Assembly (NCBI GenBank): GCA_052033835.1 | Contig: JBPOJG010000025.1 | Location: 1,763-65,762 of the forward strand | DNA length: 64,000 nt | Reading direction: 5' to 3' | From: Spirochaetota bacterium | GTDB taxonomy: Bacteria; Spirochaetota; Leptospiria; Leptospirales; Leptospiraceae | Shown: positions 2,923 to 9,222 of the stretch, piece by piece | Numbering within the stretch: position 1 is the stretch's first letter | Layout: every line of letters begins with the position of its first letter | Position numbers and translations under genes: made by a program | The notes under the pieces: model-generated | Seen by the model: the letters and a program-made list of their open reading frames with translations, nothing else | Told to the model about the DNA's origin: nothing | Database searches by the model: none

Positions 2923-4932
2923 ATGAGTGATCCAAAAAAAATAGATTTGGGAAATCAGAAGCTGAAATTTATTCCAGAGGAATTGTTTGCAAAGACGGAT
3001 ATCACTGAACTGAATCTGAGCTCTAATGAAATTTCTGTAATTCCGGAGAAGATAGGAAAACTGAAAAACCTGAAAAGGCTTCGACTGATGGGAAATCCGA
3101 TTTCCTCTCTTCCGGAAAGTCTGCAGGAACTCAGAAAACTGGAAAACATTGATCTTTCCAGTACAAATATAAAAAACCTTCCATCGTCCCTGTTTTCCGT
3201 CGTCGGGTTAAAAGAAATCAGTCTATGGGGGACATCATTAGAATATATACCAGAGGAAATCGGAAATCTGAAAAACCTGATTTCCCTGTCCGTATGGACT
3301 GATCATCTTCCAAATTCCATCGGAAATCTGATTCATTTGGAACGGCTGCATTTGACAGGAAAAAATCTGAGATCAATTTCGTCTCAGATAGGGAATCTCA
3401 TTTCTCTAGAATCATTATTTTTAAATCATACGAATATAGAAAATATACCGGATACATTCGGGAATCTTCTGAATCTGAAGACGGCTGATCTTTCGGCAAA
3501 CAGCCGTCTGAGAGATATTCCGGCTTCCATAGGGAAACTGAAAAAATTAGAAAAACTGAATCTTATGTTCTGTGATCTGAAATCTGTTCCGGAAGAAATC
3601 GGTCATCTGAATTCGCTGAAAGAACTGCAGATCCAGACTGCATCACTGCCCTCATCAGTCGGAAAACTGAACTCTCTGGAGATTCTGGTTCTGTCCTCCC
3701 TGCAGTCGGCAGATCTTCCTGTTGAAATTCAGCAGTTGATTCATTTAAAGATTTTGAAAATTATGGATACTCAGATTGAGTCGATTGATCTCGATTTCGG
3801 AAAATTCCAGAATTTGAATGAACTTGGTATTTCGAGGAATTTCAATCTGACGAGAATGTCCGGTTCTATAGGAGAATCTTCTGTAAGAAAAATATATTGT
3901 AATGATAATCCTCAATGGAAGAGTCTGCCGGAGGAATTGGGACAGTGCCGATTTTTGGAAGACATTGAGATGATTTATTCTGATTTCGATGAACTTCCGG
4001 AATCCCTGTCTCAGTTGAAATCTTTGAAAAAGCTTCGTTTTGCGTGGAATAAGAATCTGAAGAATCTTCCATTTTCGGAAGAGCAGACGGAGAATCTTGA
4101 TTATCTAGATCTGGATGAAAATCAGAATCTTTCAGTACCTGCCTATTTTCAGAAAATTCCTTCCGGAATTCTTTCATCACCTGCAAAGAATCTAATCATT
4201 AGAATGTATCCCAAAGTGTATTCATCAAAGCAGGAGATTATGGATAAAATGATTTCTGAACTGAATGAAGGAGTTGAACATTTTGAATTTCCATATTGGG
4301 ATGATTATTCCACATATCACAGTGCTGTAGGAAAGATGAGGCTGTCCGCTTTTTATTCAGACGAGGGAATGGCGCTTATTTTTGAGTCGATTGAATACAG
4401 TTCCGGGGCTGGTGAAATCTCGGACTGTGCCAGAGGGTTTGCCACATTCAGTATTTCAGAAAGGATGCCGAATATAGAAAATTCCATACGAATTGTAATG
4501 AATGATTATAAATTGGAAAGAGATACGATATTCCGTTTAGAGCTGAGCGGTGAGATGTTTGCGATCTCTCTGGATTCTGAATTCATTGATTTTTGTGAAT
4601 CTCATATCAACAGTACTGGGGATAAACCTATTGACGAAGCTGTTCTTCTTTTTAAAATTGCAGAGACAGTTCCTTCTGAAAAACTTTTTCCAGACATCAG
4701 GGAAATCCGAAAAGTTTTTCAAATTCCAGAAACAATGGAGCATATTTATTCTGTAACTGAATGGCGTCATCCTACTGCGGATGAAATTTTTGGAGAAGAG
4801 AAAAAGATGGAAGAATATGAATCCATAAAGGAGCTTATAAAGGCAGCTTCTGAAAATCGTAAGCCTTTTCTGAATGAGGAATCGAATACGGATTGGAAAA
4901 AAATGTTCCGTGTTTCTAACTGCTCAGCCTAA
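2923..4932 (+). CDS. Leucine-rich-repeat protein with an unassigned ~240-aa C-terminal domain
   Basis: About 17 LxxLxLxxNxLxxLPxxIGxL repeats over aa 1-420. No signal peptide (MSDPKKIDLGNQKLKFIPEELF). The C-terminal 240 aa is non-repetitive. Confidence 0.85.
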   Translation: MSDPKKIDLGNQKLKFIPEELFAKTDITELNLSSNEISVIPEKIGKLKNLKRLRLMGNPISSLPESLQELRKLENIDLSSTNIKNLPSSLFSVVGLKEISLWGTSLEYIPEEIGNLKNLISLSVWTDHLPNSIGNLIHLERLHLTGKNLRSISSQIGNLISLESLFLNHTNIENIPDTFGNLLNLKTADLSANSRLRDIPASIGKLKKLEKLNLMFCDLKSVPEEIGHLNSLKELQIQTASLPSSVGKLNSLEILVLSSLQSADLPVEIQQLIHLKILKIMDTQIESIDLDFGKFQNLNELGISRNFNLTRMSGSIGESSVRKIYCNDNPQWKSLPEELGQCRFLEDIEMIYSDFDELPESLSQLKSLKKLRFAWNKNLKNLPFSEEQTENLDYLDLDENQNLSVPAYFQKIPSGILSSPAKNLIIRMYPKVYSSKQEIMDKMISELNEGVEHFEFPYWDDYSTYHSAVGKMRLSAFYSDEGMALIFESIEYSSGAGEISDCARGFATFSISERMPNIENSIRIVMNDYKLERDTIFRLELSGEMFAISLDSEFIDFCESHINSTGDKPIDEAVLLFKIAETVPSEKLFPDIREIRKVFQIPETMEHIYSVTEWRHPTADEIFGEEKKMEEYESIKELIKAASENRKPFLNEESNTDWKKMFRVSNCSA

Positions 4933-4935
4933 CGT

Positions 4936-5030
4936 CAGCGACTTCAAAGCTTGCTTCGTAGTTACTTTTAACCCACTTTTCACGCGGGATGTTGATACCT
5001 GCCCGCGGTTTCGCAAATATGGAAGCTCAC
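4936..5030. repeat. Modular intergenic repeat, copy 2 (modules D+B, inverted)
   Basis: cagcgacttcaaagcttgcttcgtagttacttttaaccc...cgcggtttcgcaaatatggaagc is the reverse complement of the 63461-63557 copy, with a small insertion. Starts 4 nt after the LRR gene stop. Confidence 0.85.
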
Positions 5031-5075
5031 TCGGTAAAATTGAAATATTCTGCCGAGCAGCTGCCGTATTTCACA

Positions 5076-5414
5076 TCATCTCTTAAAAGAAAAAAGATTT
5101 GTGGAAGACTCATTCCCTACGAAAATTCCATCCAGATCAAAACCAAGTTCCTTTAAGTACAGAAGTCTGTAGGATTCAGTTTCGTCATCAGAATGAAATG
5201 TGAGTTCCATCTCATTCCAGAAATTTTCAGGTGTCCAGCCGAACCCCAGATTTTTATCCAGATACTGAATTGCATTCAGAACAGGGGCATTCAGAAAAAA
5301 GGATACAATGTCAATCAGAGCTTCTTTTTCATCCATTGCTCTGATCTGTCTGTAGAAATGAGTTTCAAAAAATCTTGAGTTGAATGTGAACTTGCATAAA
5401 TAATTCTTAATCAT
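5076..5414 (-). CDS. Hypothetical protein
   Basis: ORF with GGGAG 6-7 nt upstream of the ATG at 5414. The longer start at 5471 has no SD. No recognisable motifs. Confidence 0.45.
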   Translation of the reverse strand: MIKNYLCKFTFNSRFFETHFYRQIRAMDEKEALIDIVSFFLNAPVLNAIQYLDKNLGFGWTPENFWNEMELTFHSDDETESYRLLYLKELGFDLDGIFVGNESSTNLFSFKR

Positions 5415-5599
5415 AATTTTCTCCCTTTTTCCTTCCTTGAATGACTGCGGAATATCGATCCGTTCTTTCATTTACAAGTATACCGATGATCAGGACAAAA
5501 TAAGACTGATTGTAAAGAAAATTTTAGAAAAATCTTCATCTTTATATCCGAAAGATTTCTTATAAATCTGAAGCCGTTGAAAAATCAGGAAATCATTAC

Positions 5600-5872
5600 T
5601 CAGATTAAAATATAATGTATCCCCAAAAATCTCAATAATTTTCTCCAGGGTTTTTTCTGTTTTTTCTGGAATTCTGCATACTCTCTTTTCATTTTATAAC
5701 TTGAGGAGGCAAGCTCAAGTCCTTCCTTGTCGATTGTAATCATCTCTTCGGTTTCTTTGGAACTGAGTCCGAACTTAAGGCAGGATTTTTCTCTGTCTGA
5801 ATAAAAAGCCGTCTTGAATTTTTCGTCTGTGTACAAAAGTGCAAGAAATGTTTCAAACTTGGGTGAACTCAT
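5600..5872 (-). CDS. Small helical protein coupled to the DUF692 gene (weak LigA-subunit-like pattern)
   Basis: 90 aa. The ATG at 5872 follows GAGGAAGG and lies 20 nt inside the DUF692 3' end. FETFLALLYTDEKFKTAFYSDREKSCLKFGLSSKETEEMITID resembles small LigA-like helical proteins. Confidence 0.5.
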   Translation of the reverse strand: MSSPKFETFLALLYTDEKFKTAFYSDREKSCLKFGLSSKETEEMITIDKEGLELASSSYKMKREYAEFQKKQKKPWRKLLRFLGIHYILI

Positions 5873-6797
5873 AGATTGACCTTCCTCTCTTCACTGTTTC
5901 TTCTGCACGATGAAGTTCGTCTAGTATCTGTGTGAAAGCAGGATAATTTCCGTCTCTTTCCAGAATCACATCAAAGCTGTTTCTGTGGACTGAGGATGTT
6001 AATTCCAGAAGTTCGTATACTTTTTCAGGAACAGCGTGCCTGTGAGTGTCTAGAACAGTATTCCCGACACGTCTGCCTCCTGCAATATGGACAGTGCCTA
6101 TTTTACCTTGCGGGATAGATAATATAAACTGCTTAGGATCAAAATGGAAATTCACAGAGTCTGCATACAGATTGTGCAGATCCAGAAGAATCCTGTTTTC
6201 CGCAGTCTCGGAGATTTTCTGCATCCATTCTGTATGAGAAAAATGACTCGCGGGTGGATCAACTGGAGATGCCGGATTTTCGAGGCTCGGAGAAATCCCA
6301 ATGATCTTTTTTGTCTTCTCCAGATTTGCGAGAAGTCCTTCCAATGTGTTCTGATTTCTGGGAGGTGCACCCAGATGATGAAGCTCCACACCGAGTCCTC
6401 TCACAAATGCAATATGTTCAGACCAGTACTGCGGGCGTATGAGATGAATGAGTTTTGCAAAACGGGAAAGTCTTTTTTCTGCAACTGGAATCGTGGAGGC
6501 AAGTCCAAGTTCGATTCCGTGCAGAGTGATCGGAGACTGAGAGGAAATAAATTTCAGAAGCTGAATGTCTTTTCGGGAAAAATCCAGATAGTCGTCAATG
6601 ATGACTTCGAGAATTGCGATCTTATCCAGATGTTTCAGAATGGCTGAAGAGATTTCATTTCTCCAGCCGAGTCCAATCCTGACTTCAGTCTCCGCCGCCG
6701 CCACAGCCGCCCCCACATCCTCCGCCGCAGCTGCTTCCTCCGTCTGAAGAACTGCAGGAAGAACCCGAGCTGCAGGATGATCCGCAGGAGGAATCAC
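5853..6797 (-). CDS. DUF692 family (MbnB/TglH/BufB-like, TIM-barrel multinuclear-iron) enzyme; start uncertain
   Basis: The family motif series is present: IGLGWR, ILEVIIDDY, LHGIELGLAS, YWSEHIAF, LENPAS, LLDLHNLYADS, TVHIAGG. No in-frame ATG near the N-terminus. GTG candidates lie at 6797, 6716 and 6704. Confidence 0.8.
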   Translation of the reverse strand: MIPPADHPAARVLPAVLQTEEAAAAEDVGAAVAAAETEVRIGLGWRNEISSAILKHLDKIAILEVIIDDYLDFSRKDIQLLKFISSQSPITLHGIELGLASTIPVAEKRLSRFAKLIHLIRPQYWSEHIAFVRGLGVELHHLGAPPRNQNTLEGLLANLEKTKKIIGISPSLENPASPVDPPASHFSHTEWMQKISETAENRILLDLHNLYADSVNFHFDPKQFILSIPQGKIGTVHIAGGRRVGNTVLDTHRHAVPEKVYELLELTSSVHRNSFDVILERDGNYPAFTQILDELHRAEETVKRGRSIYEFTQV

Positions 6798-7584
6798 TTC
6801 CCCATGAGGAACTCCACGAATTGGAATAGGATCTGGGATACAGTTCCTGCATAAAGGAAAACTCTGTGCCGAAAGCAGTGATGCCGAGAACTGCCGCTGC
6901 GAGATAAAGTCCTGAATCAGTTCCGGGCTGAGAGGAAACAGTTCTGTCTCTGTTGACTGTATTCTGAATGTCTCTTAAAAGTGTTTTTCCTTTTACTGTC
7001 TGTCTCGGATTCCAGGTGACCAGAAAAATGATAAAAAAGAATAATGTCAAAAGAATTAGAAAAAGCACATTTGTATGGCCGCTCATAATGCTCAGAAAAA
7101 TTCTTGTTCCGGAAAGACCGACGAGTGCCGTCAGGGAAAGAAGCAGAACTGTCATTCTCATATTTTTGATCTGATCATCCGGAATGAGCTGAAGTTTTTT
7201 TAATGTATTCTCGTATTTTCTGCATACAGCCTGTACATCCAAATCCGTAAAGACGCTGAACGCATCCTTTTCGAAGGAGAAATGTTGCAGAACGGTCTTT
7301 TCTAGAGGATTGTCCTCAAGTGTGATATGTGCATCGCTTCTAAGCAGGTTCTGTCCGTTTTTTTCGAGAGCATTTCTGTGAAGAAGAGATGCCACAGAGA
7401 GACGGACAGTTTCCTTGTCGCCCGCACGGAGCATACTGAATATATATGGATCTGTCAGGGGGACTTTAGGAAGTTCTCCGTTTTCTTTCAGAAGTCGGAT
7501 AATGAAGGAGAGTAATAGAAGCACTGCCCCGAGTCCTGCGTAAAAACCCAGGAACTCAGGACCGTTTAAATGAAAAGGATTCAT
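6685..7584 (-). CDS. TIGR04222-like membrane protein with a Ser/Gly/Cys-rich C-terminal tail
   Basis: N-terminal TM (FLGFYAGLGAVLLLLSFII), an LTDPYIFSMLRAGDKETVRLSVASLL motif and central TMs. The tail is SSWSSSWGSDSSCGSSCSSGSSCSSSDGGSSCGGGCGGGCGGGGD, with 6 Cys in the last 33 aa. Confidence 0.7.
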   Translation of the reverse strand: MNPFHLNGPEFLGFYAGLGAVLLLLSFIIRLLKENGELPKVPLTDPYIFSMLRAGDKETVRLSVASLLHRNALEKNGQNLLRSDAHITLEDNPLEKTVLQHFSFEKDAFSVFTDLDVQAVCRKYENTLKKLQLIPDDQIKNMRMTVLLLSLTALVGLSGTRIFLSIMSGHTNVLFLILLTLFFFIIFLVTWNPRQTVKGKTLLRDIQNTVNRDRTVSSQPGTDSGLYLAAAVLGITAFGTEFSFMQELYPRSYSNSWSSSWGSDSSCGSSCSSGSSCSSSDGGSSCGGGCGGGCGGGGD

Positions 7585-7585
7585 T

Positions 7586-8026
7586 TCATTTGTCCAGAGG
7601 AATGATCAGGACAGGAACCTTGGATTCGTTTACAATCACTCCGTCTACGTCATTTACAAAAATCTTATATAATAAACCATGCTTATGATGACCGAGGATG
7701 ATCAGGTCGATCCCGAGTTTTTCCGATTCCTTCAGAATTGCATCTGTTGCTGCTCCCTGAATCAGAAATCCGTCACATTCAATGTTTCTTGCTCTCAGTT
7801 CATCAAGATGCTTGAGGATGATTTTGTGCTCTTTTTTCAGTTCCTTTGCTCTGAAATCTCTGACATGCTGAGGACCGACATCATAGCCGATGAATTCGGG
7901 GTTCGGCATTGCGATATGGACAATCCAGATTTTGGAACCGAATTTTTCGGAAATTTCAACGGCTTTTTTCAGAAGAACAGAGGACTCCTTGTCTTCGAAA
8001 TTGATGGCTACGAGTATATTTTTCAT
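7586..8026 (-). CDS. Universal stress protein (UspA family)
   Basis: 146 aa. ILVAINFED..., DLIILGHHKHG and VPVLIIP are typical USP motifs. The stop lies 1 nt from the next gene's ATG. Confidence 0.85.
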   Translation of the reverse strand: MKNILVAINFEDKESSVLLKKAVEISEKFGSKIWIVHIAMPNPEFIGYDVGPQHVRDFRAKELKKEHKIILKHLDELRARNIECDGFLIQGAATDAILKESEKLGIDLIILGHHKHGLLYKIFVNDVDGVIVNESKVPVLIIPLDK

Positions 8027-8130
8027 GAGAATCCTTCCTTCCTAAATCAAAAATCTTCCTCATTTAGAGTCAACCGCTTTTCCTCAAATTCACTGCTTGA
8101 CTGATAAAAGAGACGTTTATAATCAGCCAT

Positions 8131-9222
8131 ATGCAGACAATTTGGGGCGGAACAGCAAAAAAGTTAAAAGGCAATTGCCTTGTGATCGGTGCATTCATTT
8201 CGGAAGGCGACAATGTGTGGACTGTTGAAGAAAAGAAATCGACCTGGGCGGATGTAGAGAAGGCAATGAACTGGATTTCCGAACAGGCCAAAGAATACGA
8301 TACAGAGGTCAGTTTTGAGCTGCTTCCAGTCAATTTGGAAGAAGGGAGCGAAGAAGAGGCAGGGGATGCGATTATTGACAGACTGCCTCGCCTGGCAGAT
8401 GATGTAAAGCTCAAGAACAAGGCGGTGGAGCAGGCCTGCATTGAGCTGGGTTATGAGTCGGTGACTGATTTTTATCACTCTCTCATCGAAGGATACTCAG
8501 ACTACAGCGTGCATTTTATGCTGCTTCTGAATGCAGATGACAGATCGTATATGACCACATGTCCCATAGACGATGAAAAGAAATTTCTCGAGCTGAATAT
8601 GGTGTTCAAGAACAACGGGAAGATCAATTCTTTTGTGTTGGCTCATGAAACACTTCATGCATACAGTGCGATGGATCTTTACAATGTTGGCGGAAGTGAA
8701 GAGGGAAAAACTGCAGAAGATGCTTCCAAAGAAAAATGTCCAAACGAAGTGATGTGTTCTTATCAGCATGATGTTTCCGATTCTGCTGTTTCTGATTATA
8801 CAGCATTTCTGGTTGGCTGGCATGATGAACCGGAAGACTGGTATGCTGAAATCACCCAGCCTCACAATAAGGCAAGACTGGAATTCATTATGAATTCATT
8901 TTCCTATTTTGACGATGACGGAAATCTTTCAGTAGAAAGCGAGGAAGAAATTCTCAAGTATTCCTATGAAGGAGGCGAATTTACTAGAATCCGTCTCAAT
9001 GAAGACGACAATCTGATTCAGTGGAGACACTATGACAATGAAACCGAGGAGGAAGAAGAATACTGGGAAACTTTAAAAGATGCAAACTATTATTATCTGG
9101 AAGGCAAATTTGTGCATACCAACATTACAGTTCCAGTCAGTTCAGTCGGGCAGGGTTATATTCTGTATGATGTTGGCGGTAAGTATGAACCCTGGGTGCA
9201 GATGACTCAGATGGAAACCTGA
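8131..9222 (+). CDS. HExxH (zincin-like) protein of an unassigned family, paralogue A
   Basis: 363 aa, no signal peptide. Shares WGGTAKKLKGNC, AHETLHAYSAMDLYN, NEVM and TAFLVGWHDEPEDWY with the ORFs at 53403 and 55782. Confidence 0.75.
   Translation: MQTIWGGTAKKLKGNCLVIGAFISEGDNVWTVEEKKSTWADVEKAMNWISEQAKEYDTEVSFELLPVNLEEGSEEEAGDAIIDRLPRLADDVKLKNKAVEQACIELGYESVTDFYHSLIEGYSDYSVHFMLLLNADDRSYMTTCPIDDEKKFLELNMVFKNNGKINSFVLAHETLHAYSAMDLYNVGGSEEGKTAEDASKEKCPNEVMCSYQHDVSDSAVSDYTAFLVGWHDEPEDWYAEITQPHNKARLEFIMNSFSYFDDDGNLSVESEEEILKYSYEGGEFTRIRLNEDDNLIQWRHYDNETEEEEEYWETLKDANYYYLEGKFVHTNITVPVSSVGQGYILYDVGGKYEPWVQMTQMET

Follow-up and report, generated by a model that had tools for sequence, protein, structure and literature searches.

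We analysed a locus at positions 5600-8026 of a 64,000-nt stretch (the window) of contig JBPOJG010000025.1, from a spirochaete of the family Leptospiraceae (assembly GCA_052033835.1). Four tightly coupled genes on the minus strand encode, in order, a universal stress protein (USP), a polytopic membrane protein of the TIGR04222 family with a Cys-rich C-terminal tail, an MNIO (DUF692) enzyme and a small protein of 90 aa. By profile matches and gene order, the locus is assigned as the Leptospiraceae copy of a TIGR04222–MNIO–small-partner cassette, predicted to be co-transcribed with the USP gene. On balance we lean towards a joint reading in which the tail of the membrane protein is the substrate of the MNIO and the small protein is a required partner of the enzyme; the chemistry performed on the tail and the metal bound by the product, both proposed by analogy, are less certain than this. 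The packing of the genes, reported in a preliminary description of the locus, was recovered in every detail. The TGA of the USP gene is followed by one base and then by the ATG of the membrane-protein gene at 7584, and the ATG of the 90-aa open reading frame (ORF) lies 20 nt within the 3' end of the MNIO gene, with a strong Shine-Dalgarno sequence (AGAGGAAGG) 7 nt upstream. Because the cassette genes overlap, there is no space in the window for a further precursor ORF among them.

The membrane protein (299 aa; 6685..7584, minus strand), which is the proposed substrate protein, matched the NCBIfam model TIGR04222 with 68.4 bits against a cutoff of 43, residues 14-237 aligning with model positions 1-227 of 229, in agreement with its earlier designation. 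Its Cys residues are at positions 121, 267, 271, 277, 286, 290 and 294. Six of the seven lie within the last 33 residues (CGSSCSSGSSCSSSDGGSSCGGGCGGGCGGGGD), as had been noted before, and each of these six has Gly or Ser directly after it. This Ser/Gly/Cys-rich segment (residues 267-299; 6688..6786, minus strand) is the proposed site of modification by the MNIO. Searches returned 1682 homologues of the membrane protein, and a Ser/Gly/Cys tail terminates 119 of the best 120, the sole exception being a truncated record. The consensus of the tail in these proteins is ...SSCGSSCGGG(G)CGGGCGGCG[GS], and the motif ...SSCGSSCGGGCGGGCGGCG is near-invariant among relatives. The word-based selection of candidates for the 120 homologues may favour proteins with tails; independently of that selection, at least four Cys were present in the last 40 residues of 67 of the 72 complete TIGR04222 genes found in genomic loci. 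The Cys columns of the tail were also near-invariant in alignments A1 and A4 (consensus SSCGSSCGGGGCGGGCGGCGG), within an otherwise low-complexity region.

A genome scan with alignment A1 yielded 80 loci, and neighbouring genes were counted using local jackhmmer searches of six-frame ORFs. The loci come from about ten phyla and include Acidobacteriota, Beta-, Delta- and Alphaproteobacteria, Methylomirabilota/Rokubacteria, Binatia, Bacillota (Heliomicrobium), Spirochaetota (Leptospiraceae), Verrucomicrobiota, Actinomycetota, Eisenbacteria and Omnitrophota. An MNIO gene was present in 68 of the 69 loci with at least 1 kb of sequence downstream, within 300 nt in 66 of these, and where at least 1.25 kb was available downstream, 66 of 67 loci had a homologue of the 90-aa protein, in most cases overlapping by 4 nt (ATGA). 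Between the TIGR04222 stop and the MNIO start, the usual junction is ATGA or TGATG, or a gap of a few bases. Reverse look-ups that started from three unrelated small proteins all reached the same cassette. Recurrence of the order and strand in at least 66 independent loci from about ten phyla puts the arrangement far outside what chance would give. In two loci (L066:3943-5858 and L068:3841-5867), two tandem Cys/Gly-tailed TIGR04222 paralogues lie ahead of a single MNIO gene, as in multi-precursor clusters for peptides made on ribosomes and modified after translation (RiPPs). The tail and the order TIGR04222, MNIO, small protein, whose conservation in orthologues the preliminary description had set as a test, are thus both conserved.

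Two further observations were made on individual loci. In two nanopore-type contigs (L085 and L086), the TIGR04222 gene and a nucleotidyltransferase-like gene are split across frames by apparent indel errors; the result is several short ORFs without Pfam hits, so neighbourhood counts based on called genes would miss such cassettes. In an Omnitrophota locus (L038:4989-7625), the Cys-tailed TIGR04222 homologue continues in-frame, with no stop, into Rossmann/TrkA-like sequence (…CGGCGGEPMKNHVILCGLGHIG…).

The identity of the third gene as a DUF692 enzyme with intact metal ligands, proposed in the preliminary description, was borne out. Pfam PF05114 (MbnB_TglH_ChrH) matched the enzyme with 202.4 bits (gathering cutoff 25, E = 1e-59) over profile positions 2-261 of 263. 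The longest ORF, 5853..6797, encodes 314 aa from a GTG, and the Pfam match begins at its residue 41. This 314-aa reading was rejected: residues 1-27 are GC-rich tail-coding DNA read in an alternative frame, and the homologous proteins begin 5-15 residues ahead of the GLGWR motif. From the upstream stop (6687-6685) to the conserved RIGLGWR motif there is no ATG, GTG or TTG, which places the MNIO start within the tail-coding DNA. The candidates are GTG 6716 (287 aa) and GTG 6704 (283 aa); the gene caller picked the former in L003, an identical contig, and we use it here (5853..6716, minus strand).

Iron ligands were mapped by combining alignments to TglH (8hci) and 3bww with the published ligands of TglH, which are His71, His107, Glu151, Asp184, Asn187, His216, Asp229, His231 and Glu258 (PMC10880893); the equivalents of H71 and H107 were placed via two conserved motifs, LHG and SEH, together with the 3bww alignment. 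All nine positions are present in the window MNIO as H66, H101, E146, D179, N182, H210, D223, H225 and E253 (287-aa numbering), and at least 68 of 70 family members share them. Matches in the PDB were 3bww and TglH 8hci (E = 2.9e-12 for TglH). The best NCBIfam models were BufB NF050167 (167.8 bits, cutoff 310) and HvfB NF003818 (134.7 bits, cutoff 360), and the MbnB model scored 34.6 bits. By these scores the enzyme is classed as a relative of the thiooxazole-forming clade and as a member of no characterised subfamily. Long antisense ORFs were seen inside the MNIO gene of GC-rich loci (for example L006:5746-6405 and L008:5782-6411, both on the minus strand) and group into 'conserved families' of 42 and 29 loci; almost certainly these arise artefactually, the sense frame being conserved in DNA of high GC content.

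The last gene of the operon (5600..5872, minus strand) encodes the 90-aa protein, which the preliminary description had named as a candidate partner of the enzyme. A word-index homology search with this protein alone gave six close relatives only, and its family was recovered only via local jackhmmer on the fetched loci together with a profile search. The profile search gave 915 hits, and the family comprises 1168 representative clusters at E <= 1e-3. Its consensus is MSxxxLEAFLARIYVDxxARxRFLADPRGEAxRAGLxxxExxALxxIDRVGLELAAxSFARKR, after which comes a basic tail whose length varies. The AlphaFold2 (AF2) model of the window protein has five helices, with a mean predicted local distance difference test score (pLDDT) of 85.7 overall and scores of 90-96 over residues 1-70. 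A Foldseek search of the PDB with this model gave Os1348 (6lk7) as the top match (probability 1.0, TM-score 0.55-0.70), followed by the borosin precursor domain of SonA and the OphMA clasp.

Sequence profiles pointed in the same direction. The 90-aa protein scored above no Pfam or NCBIfam cutoff; it gave weak matches to models of the NHLP clan (NF038399, E = 1.4e-4, 21.9 bits, cutoff 40; TIGR04509, E = 2e-3) and 14.9 bits with Pfam LigA (cutoff 25.3). Among 32 members of the family, NF038399 weakly matched 30 (best E = 2.7e-11), TIGR04509 17, LigA 26 and Frankia_peptide 21. Searched against PDB sequences, the family profile reached nitrile hydratase alpha (E = 3.4e-6) and LigA-domain/SonA entries (E ~4e-4). 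Neither the DUF2063 protein 3dee nor TglI (8hi7) appeared in that search at E <= 10 or among the top 50 Foldseek matches, and the MbnC fold was not recovered. None of the 32 members matched DUF2063 at E <= 1, and no Pfam signature of PME-type 1 partners (DUF2063 plus a RiPP recognition element, RRE), MbnC or Anthrone_oxy was present in the 90-aa protein or its 32 relatives. Together, the AF2 model, Foldseek and the profiles delimit a helical domain of the NHLP/LigA clan at residues 1-63 (5684..5872, minus strand), which ends with a conserved S-x3-K-R motif. The protein is accordingly graded, at the level of sequence and fold similarity, as a clan-level relative of NHLP/Os1348 precursors and not as a family member.

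Residues 64-90 (5603..5683, minus strand; ...KKQKKPWRKLLRFLGIHYILI) form an extension that is basic and then hydrophobic in composition. Among 126 family members, the segment after the KR motif is 5-59 aa long (median 19 aa) and carries on average 5.5 K+R and 0.7 D+E; it has no conserved column, Cys or core, and 56 of the 126 members have no Cys at all. The extension varies in length, is missing in the fused and shortest forms, and may bind the membrane. In nine loci, which are included in the synteny counts, the small protein is encoded in-frame at the C-terminus of the MNIO, the full domain being present in seven and a weak partial match (E ~3e-4) in L044 and L052. These natural fusions end a few residues after the small-protein domain, right after the KR motif. 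The nine fusions provide a Rosetta-stone argument for a physical partnership of enzyme and small protein. The absence of a conserved core, the variable tail and the ending of the fused forms after the domain lead us to read the small protein as a partner or adaptor of the MNIO and not as its substrate, and its resemblance to RiPP leader domains raises the possibility of a leader domain that acts in trans. The two functional proposals of the preliminary description therefore find support in silico: the small ORF encodes a real, conserved protein in partner position that is fused to the MNIO in nine loci, and the likely substrate is marked by a conserved Cys tail in near-obligate synteny with the enzyme.

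How the enzyme would reach the tail depends on the topology of the membrane protein. Its AF2 model has a pLDDT of 80, with values below 50 over residues 255-299, indicating that the tail is disordered. The model contains three strong transmembrane (TM) helices (residues 8-34, 137-168 and 174-191), a marginal fourth helix (223-238) and a soluble helix-helix-beta-hairpin region. Kyte-Doolittle values are 2.5-2.7 for TM1-3; for the fourth segment they are 1.62 as the family mean and 1.47 in the window protein, and the 15 residues that follow it contain about 2.1 K+R on average in the family. Since the fourth segment is marginal and about two K/R come after it, a placement with three TM helices and the tail inside is plausible, and such a topology, with a cytoplasmic tail accessible to the enzyme, would match the positive-inside rule at least as well as a periplasmic tail. 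When the full TIGR04222 model was compared with the PDB by Foldseek, no meaningful match emerged (best E 1.7, probability 0.08), and we therefore make no claim of an RRE or a winged helix for the helix-helix-hairpin region. The membrane protein has no recognisable leader of its own.

The reading that we favour can be put as a sequence of proposed steps. The operon would co-translate the membrane protein, the MNIO and the small subunit, and the cytoplasmic enzyme would form a complex with the 90-aa helical protein, whose basic/hydrophobic C-terminus may keep the complex at the membrane. This complex would oxidise the six Cys of the disordered tail, either ahead of the tail's translocation or on the cytoplasmic side of the membrane. 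By analogy with BufB, HvfB and FonB, the product would most likely be 5-thiooxazole-type heterocycles (-4 Da per Cys), and the modified tail might then serve in metal or oxidative stress as a membrane-tethered binder of copper or another soft metal. Linkage to the USP gene suggests stress-linked expression in the clade of the window. The reading draws support from the best NCBIfam matches of the MNIO, because BufB and HvfB belong to the clade that installs 5-thiooxazoles; with FonB, these enzymes do so on Cys for copper binding (PMC13097082). For FonB, the preferred residue following the target Cys is a small one, and the C-G and C-S dipeptides in the window tail agree with this. HvfB requires a partner to attain the mixed-valent state in which it is active, and a fusion of HvfB with HvfC made by engineering has activity (bioRxiv 2026.07.17.739211); the natural fusions of MNIO and small protein parallel this construct. 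Further support comes from Antoine, Leprevost et al. (Microb Genom 2025; PMC12452194), who arrived independently at the same hypothesis for the tail.

Several points weigh against this reading. We found no paper with biochemistry on TIGR04222–MNIO clusters or with chemical evidence of modification for any TIGR04222 protein. The preliminary description had held that every characterised DUF692 enzyme acts on Cys, and this cannot be maintained: Asp is what the MNIO domain of PflD hydroxylates, and for ApyH, too, oxidation of an Asp has been proposed (PMC12636437). The MNIO scores under the BufB and HvfB equivalog cutoffs, so that their chemistry is not simply transferable. No MNIO is present in one third of the complete genomes that carry TIGR04222, and C-proximal Cys are missing from more than a quarter of TIGR04222 proteins (PMC12452194); among our loci, L038 is the only one of 69 with a Cys-tailed TIGR04222 gene and no adjacent MNIO gene. 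If the fourth helix spans the membrane, the tail would be periplasmic and the enzyme cytoplasmic, and modification would have to precede translocation. Finally, the resemblance of the small protein to a RiPP leader domain means that it may itself be a substrate.

This last point bears on two alternatives that assign other roles to the 90-aa protein. It could be a free-standing leader of the NHLP type that docks on the MNIO and activates it, instead of a partner of the DUF2063 or MbnC style, in which case the tail would still be the substrate and the leader (recognition) and core (modified) would reside on two separate polypeptides, the leader acting in trans or fused to the MNIO. The nearest relatives of the small protein in sequence and fold are indeed RiPP leader or recognition domains (Os1348/PosA, SonA, NHLP, Nif11), no conserved core follows its domain, the natural fusions stop right after the KR motif, and the tail protein lacks a recognisable leader. 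Against this, a member of the family is in the PME-type 2 list of Antoine et al., which is defined by HHpred likeness to 3dee and TglI; and LigA-type domains are also ordinary small subunits of iron dioxygenases, free or, as in 3wku, fused, so a role as structural subunit fits equally. We regard a leader in trans as possible, if unlikely. The extended form of this proposal, a naturally split RiPP-like system in which the NHLP leader switches the MNIO on in trans (in cis in the nine fusions) and the tail is the core of a membrane-anchored poly-thiooxazole metallophore, we likewise hold to be doubtful. A different assignment makes the 90-aa protein a RiPP precursor with an NHLP leader and a basic core, and the TIGR04222 protein an exporter, immunity protein or receptor. 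NHLP-clan similarity across the family (30 of 32 members with NF038399, 17 of 32 with TIGR04509) speaks for it, as does PosA/Os1348, a genuine substrate of an MNIO domain; enzymes of the borosin type, moreover, bear a C-terminally fused substrate (the OphMA matches). Such a precursor is nonetheless highly improbable, given that 56 of 126 members have no Cys, that the tails of 5-59 aa have no conserved column past the KR motif, and that the fused and the shortest forms extend only a few residues past the domain. It would also have no double-Gly site and a gene after the MNIO instead of before it, and the conserved Cys tail of the upstream protein would be left unexplained.

The remaining alternatives concern the tail and the locus itself. 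The tail may stay unmodified (metallothionein-like, Fe-S or in a disulfide relay) while the MNIO acts on another substrate, or it may undergo a different reaction such as C-beta excision, cross-linking or cleavage. The genomes with TIGR04222 and no MNIO, with L038 as an example, are in keeping with this, and so are the position of the enzyme under the equivalog cutoffs of every characterised subfamily and the diversity of MNIO chemistry. In the subfamily of the window, however, the coupling to the MNIO is near-obligate and translational, the overlapping genes leave no room for another precursor ORF, and L066 and L068 place two Cys-tailed paralogues before one MNIO; we judge this alternative improbable. 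That unrelated genes are neighbours by chance, or that the small ORF is spurious, has in its favour only the usual warning that ORFs which are short and overlapping often prove to be artefacts. With order, strand and coupling kept in at least 66 loci across phyla, and a small protein that has 1168 representative clusters, a confident fold and MNIO fusions, the probability of this alternative is essentially negligible, and we consider it refuted. Modification of the tail by the MNIO with the small protein as required partner is thus the reading that we retain.

The slot ahead of the TIGR04222 gene differs between lineages. In the window it is occupied by the USP gene (146 aa; 7586..8026, minus strand), the first gene of the operon, whose product matched Pfam Usp (PF00582) with 69.7 bits (cutoff 24, E = 4.9e-19) and scored below every equivalog cutoff for the E. 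coli Usp proteins. A USP gene likewise lies 1 nt upstream of the TIGR04222 gene in two Leptospiraceae relatives (L088 and L089) and is absent from the other 80 loci; a further Leptospiraceae genome (L032) has the three core genes only, without the USP gene. The USP gene is an accessory gene specific to the clade of the window. In 57-59 of about 76 loci, a gene of 245 aa for a nucleotidyltransferase-like protein abuts the TIGR04222 start (examples among L005-L084 are L006:4188-4991 and L019:4239-4985; another is L087:2455-3204). Its product carries the motif YGSxAEGxLRxTSDVNxLLVL, with Asn at the position of the second catalytic Asp, and gave weak matches to Polbeta/NTP_transf_2 and to an AadA-type (aminoglycoside) adenylyltransferase (E ~0.003). 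This gene is likely to be a fourth component of the cassette. A search of the window revealed no nucleotidyltransferase-like homologue and no second copy of any cassette gene; the clade of the window thus carries the USP gene in the slot that the nucleotidyltransferase-like gene occupies in most lineages. One of the two relatives (L088:3499-4157) also contains a TumE-family (PF20126) gene and a gene for 104 aa, with the small-protein gene kept about 720 nt downstream.

A scan of positions 5000-8400 for promoters gave 9 promoter-like sites against 5.2 expected, and a scan of the same interval for terminators gave 6 terminator-like sites against 3.1 expected; none of either kind was well placed. 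Downstream of the small-protein gene, after 128 nt, a 131-aa ORF follows on the same strand (5076-5471, minus strand). It matches no Pfam or NCBIfam model and was not seen in the cassettes of other lineages; a 112-aa version was called in L003. A gene for a 669-aa leucine-rich-repeat protein (2923-4932, plus strand) adjoins the operon.

TIGR04222 proteins are the largest predicted class of MNIO substrates without experimental data, and the compact locus described here, with a third component that is near-universal and that reconstitution probably requires, offers a clean test case. If the tail is modified, MNIO chemistry would reach from secreted peptides to integral membrane proteins, and a membrane-tethered relative of the copper-binding captophorins would exist in spirochaetes, Acidobacteriota and many other phyla. 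If leader and core prove to be split, this would be the first case in which the two are on separate polypeptides by design, and the first MNIO to mature an integral membrane protein. The likeness of the small protein to RiPP leader domains is relevant to the mode of action of MNIO partners.

The closest published systems are the TIGR04222–MNIO clusters of Antoine et al. (PMC12452194), in which TIGR04222 is encoded beside about 11% of MNIO genes (Table S1). A subset of these proteins has C-proximal Cys-rich segments; the segments were predicted there to be periplasmic and were named as probable MNIO substrates, with modification remaining to be established. The window locus belongs in this subset, having a Cys-rich C-proximal segment and an adjoining MNIO gene, and it shares with the TIGR04222–MNIO–PME-type 2 clusters the same three families, the same order (substrate, MNIO and partner being the usual one) and the proposal of an MNIO-modified Cys-rich C-terminus. 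The architecture and the tail-substrate hypothesis are therefore not new, since they have been published as bioinformatic predictions. The 90-aa gene corresponds to PME-type 2 in lying directly after the MNIO gene without a Pfam DUF2063 signature. We had considered the small protein as 'adjamnio-V', a label for very small proteins after MNIO genes; a search of accessions instead placed one family member, MBX7222117.1 (P0139, the small protein of L036), in the 'Fig6A PME-type 2' list of that paper. Five other accessions of the family were not found in the list, and ten further members have no GenBank accession. Our results differ from the published ones in several respects. Many of the published clusters apparently lack a partner, PME-type 2 being reported in 'at least 10%' of TIGR04222 clusters, whereas in the subfamily of the window the partner is found in 66 of 67 loci and appears near-universal. 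PME-type 2 was defined via HHpred similarity to the DUF2063 proteins 3dee (NGO1945) and TglI (8hi7), whereas HMMER and Foldseek, as used here, indicate that the detectable homology is to the NHLP/LigA clan; a remote relation to 3dee or TglI may nevertheless exist. In addition, most lineages add a nucleotidyltransferase-like gene where the clade of the window has a USP gene, and the Leptospiraceae were not singled out in that work.

The bufferins and other captophorins (BufABC, HvfABC with oxazolin and FonABC with fontiphorin) share with the window a large MNIO clade, multiple Cys flanked by small residues, the order substrate–MNIO–partner and, probably, a role in metal stress. Their substrates are small secreted peptides of the DUF2282, Buf_6/12Cys or EGKCG types, in contrast to the tail of a polytopic membrane protein without a Sec signal peptide, and the window has no DUF2063 (PME-type 1) partner, no DoxX gene and no Lys flanking the Cys motifs. 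PosA (Os1348, 6lk7), an NHLP-type precursor whose pathway includes the MNIO-nitroreductase PflD/PosD (PMC12636437; PMC7726476), is the best fold match of the 90-aa protein, and its leader domain is the best NCBIfam model (NF038399). PosA is itself modified and, unlike the 90-aa family, has a core that is conserved, with a run of Gln and the motif ARMD, and the MNIO of the pfl/pos systems is fused to a nitroreductase, whereas that of the window is not fused and is accompanied by no HEXXH enzyme. In LigAB and gallate dioxygenase (3wku), a small helical LigA-type domain is separate from, or C-terminally fused to, a non-haem iron enzyme, as is the case here. LigAB is an extradiol dioxygenase of the LigB fold that acts on an aromatic small molecule, while the window has an MNIO, predicted to be a TIM barrel, with a proposed protein-tail substrate, and the similarity to LigA is weak. 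The MbnC and DUF2063-like TglI folds were not recovered for the 90-aa protein, and MbnB and TglH are more distant from the window MNIO; MbnABC and TglHI nonetheless consist of an MNIO that modifies Cys of a ribosomal peptide with an obligatory small partner, and their set of iron ligands is identical to that of the window MNIO.

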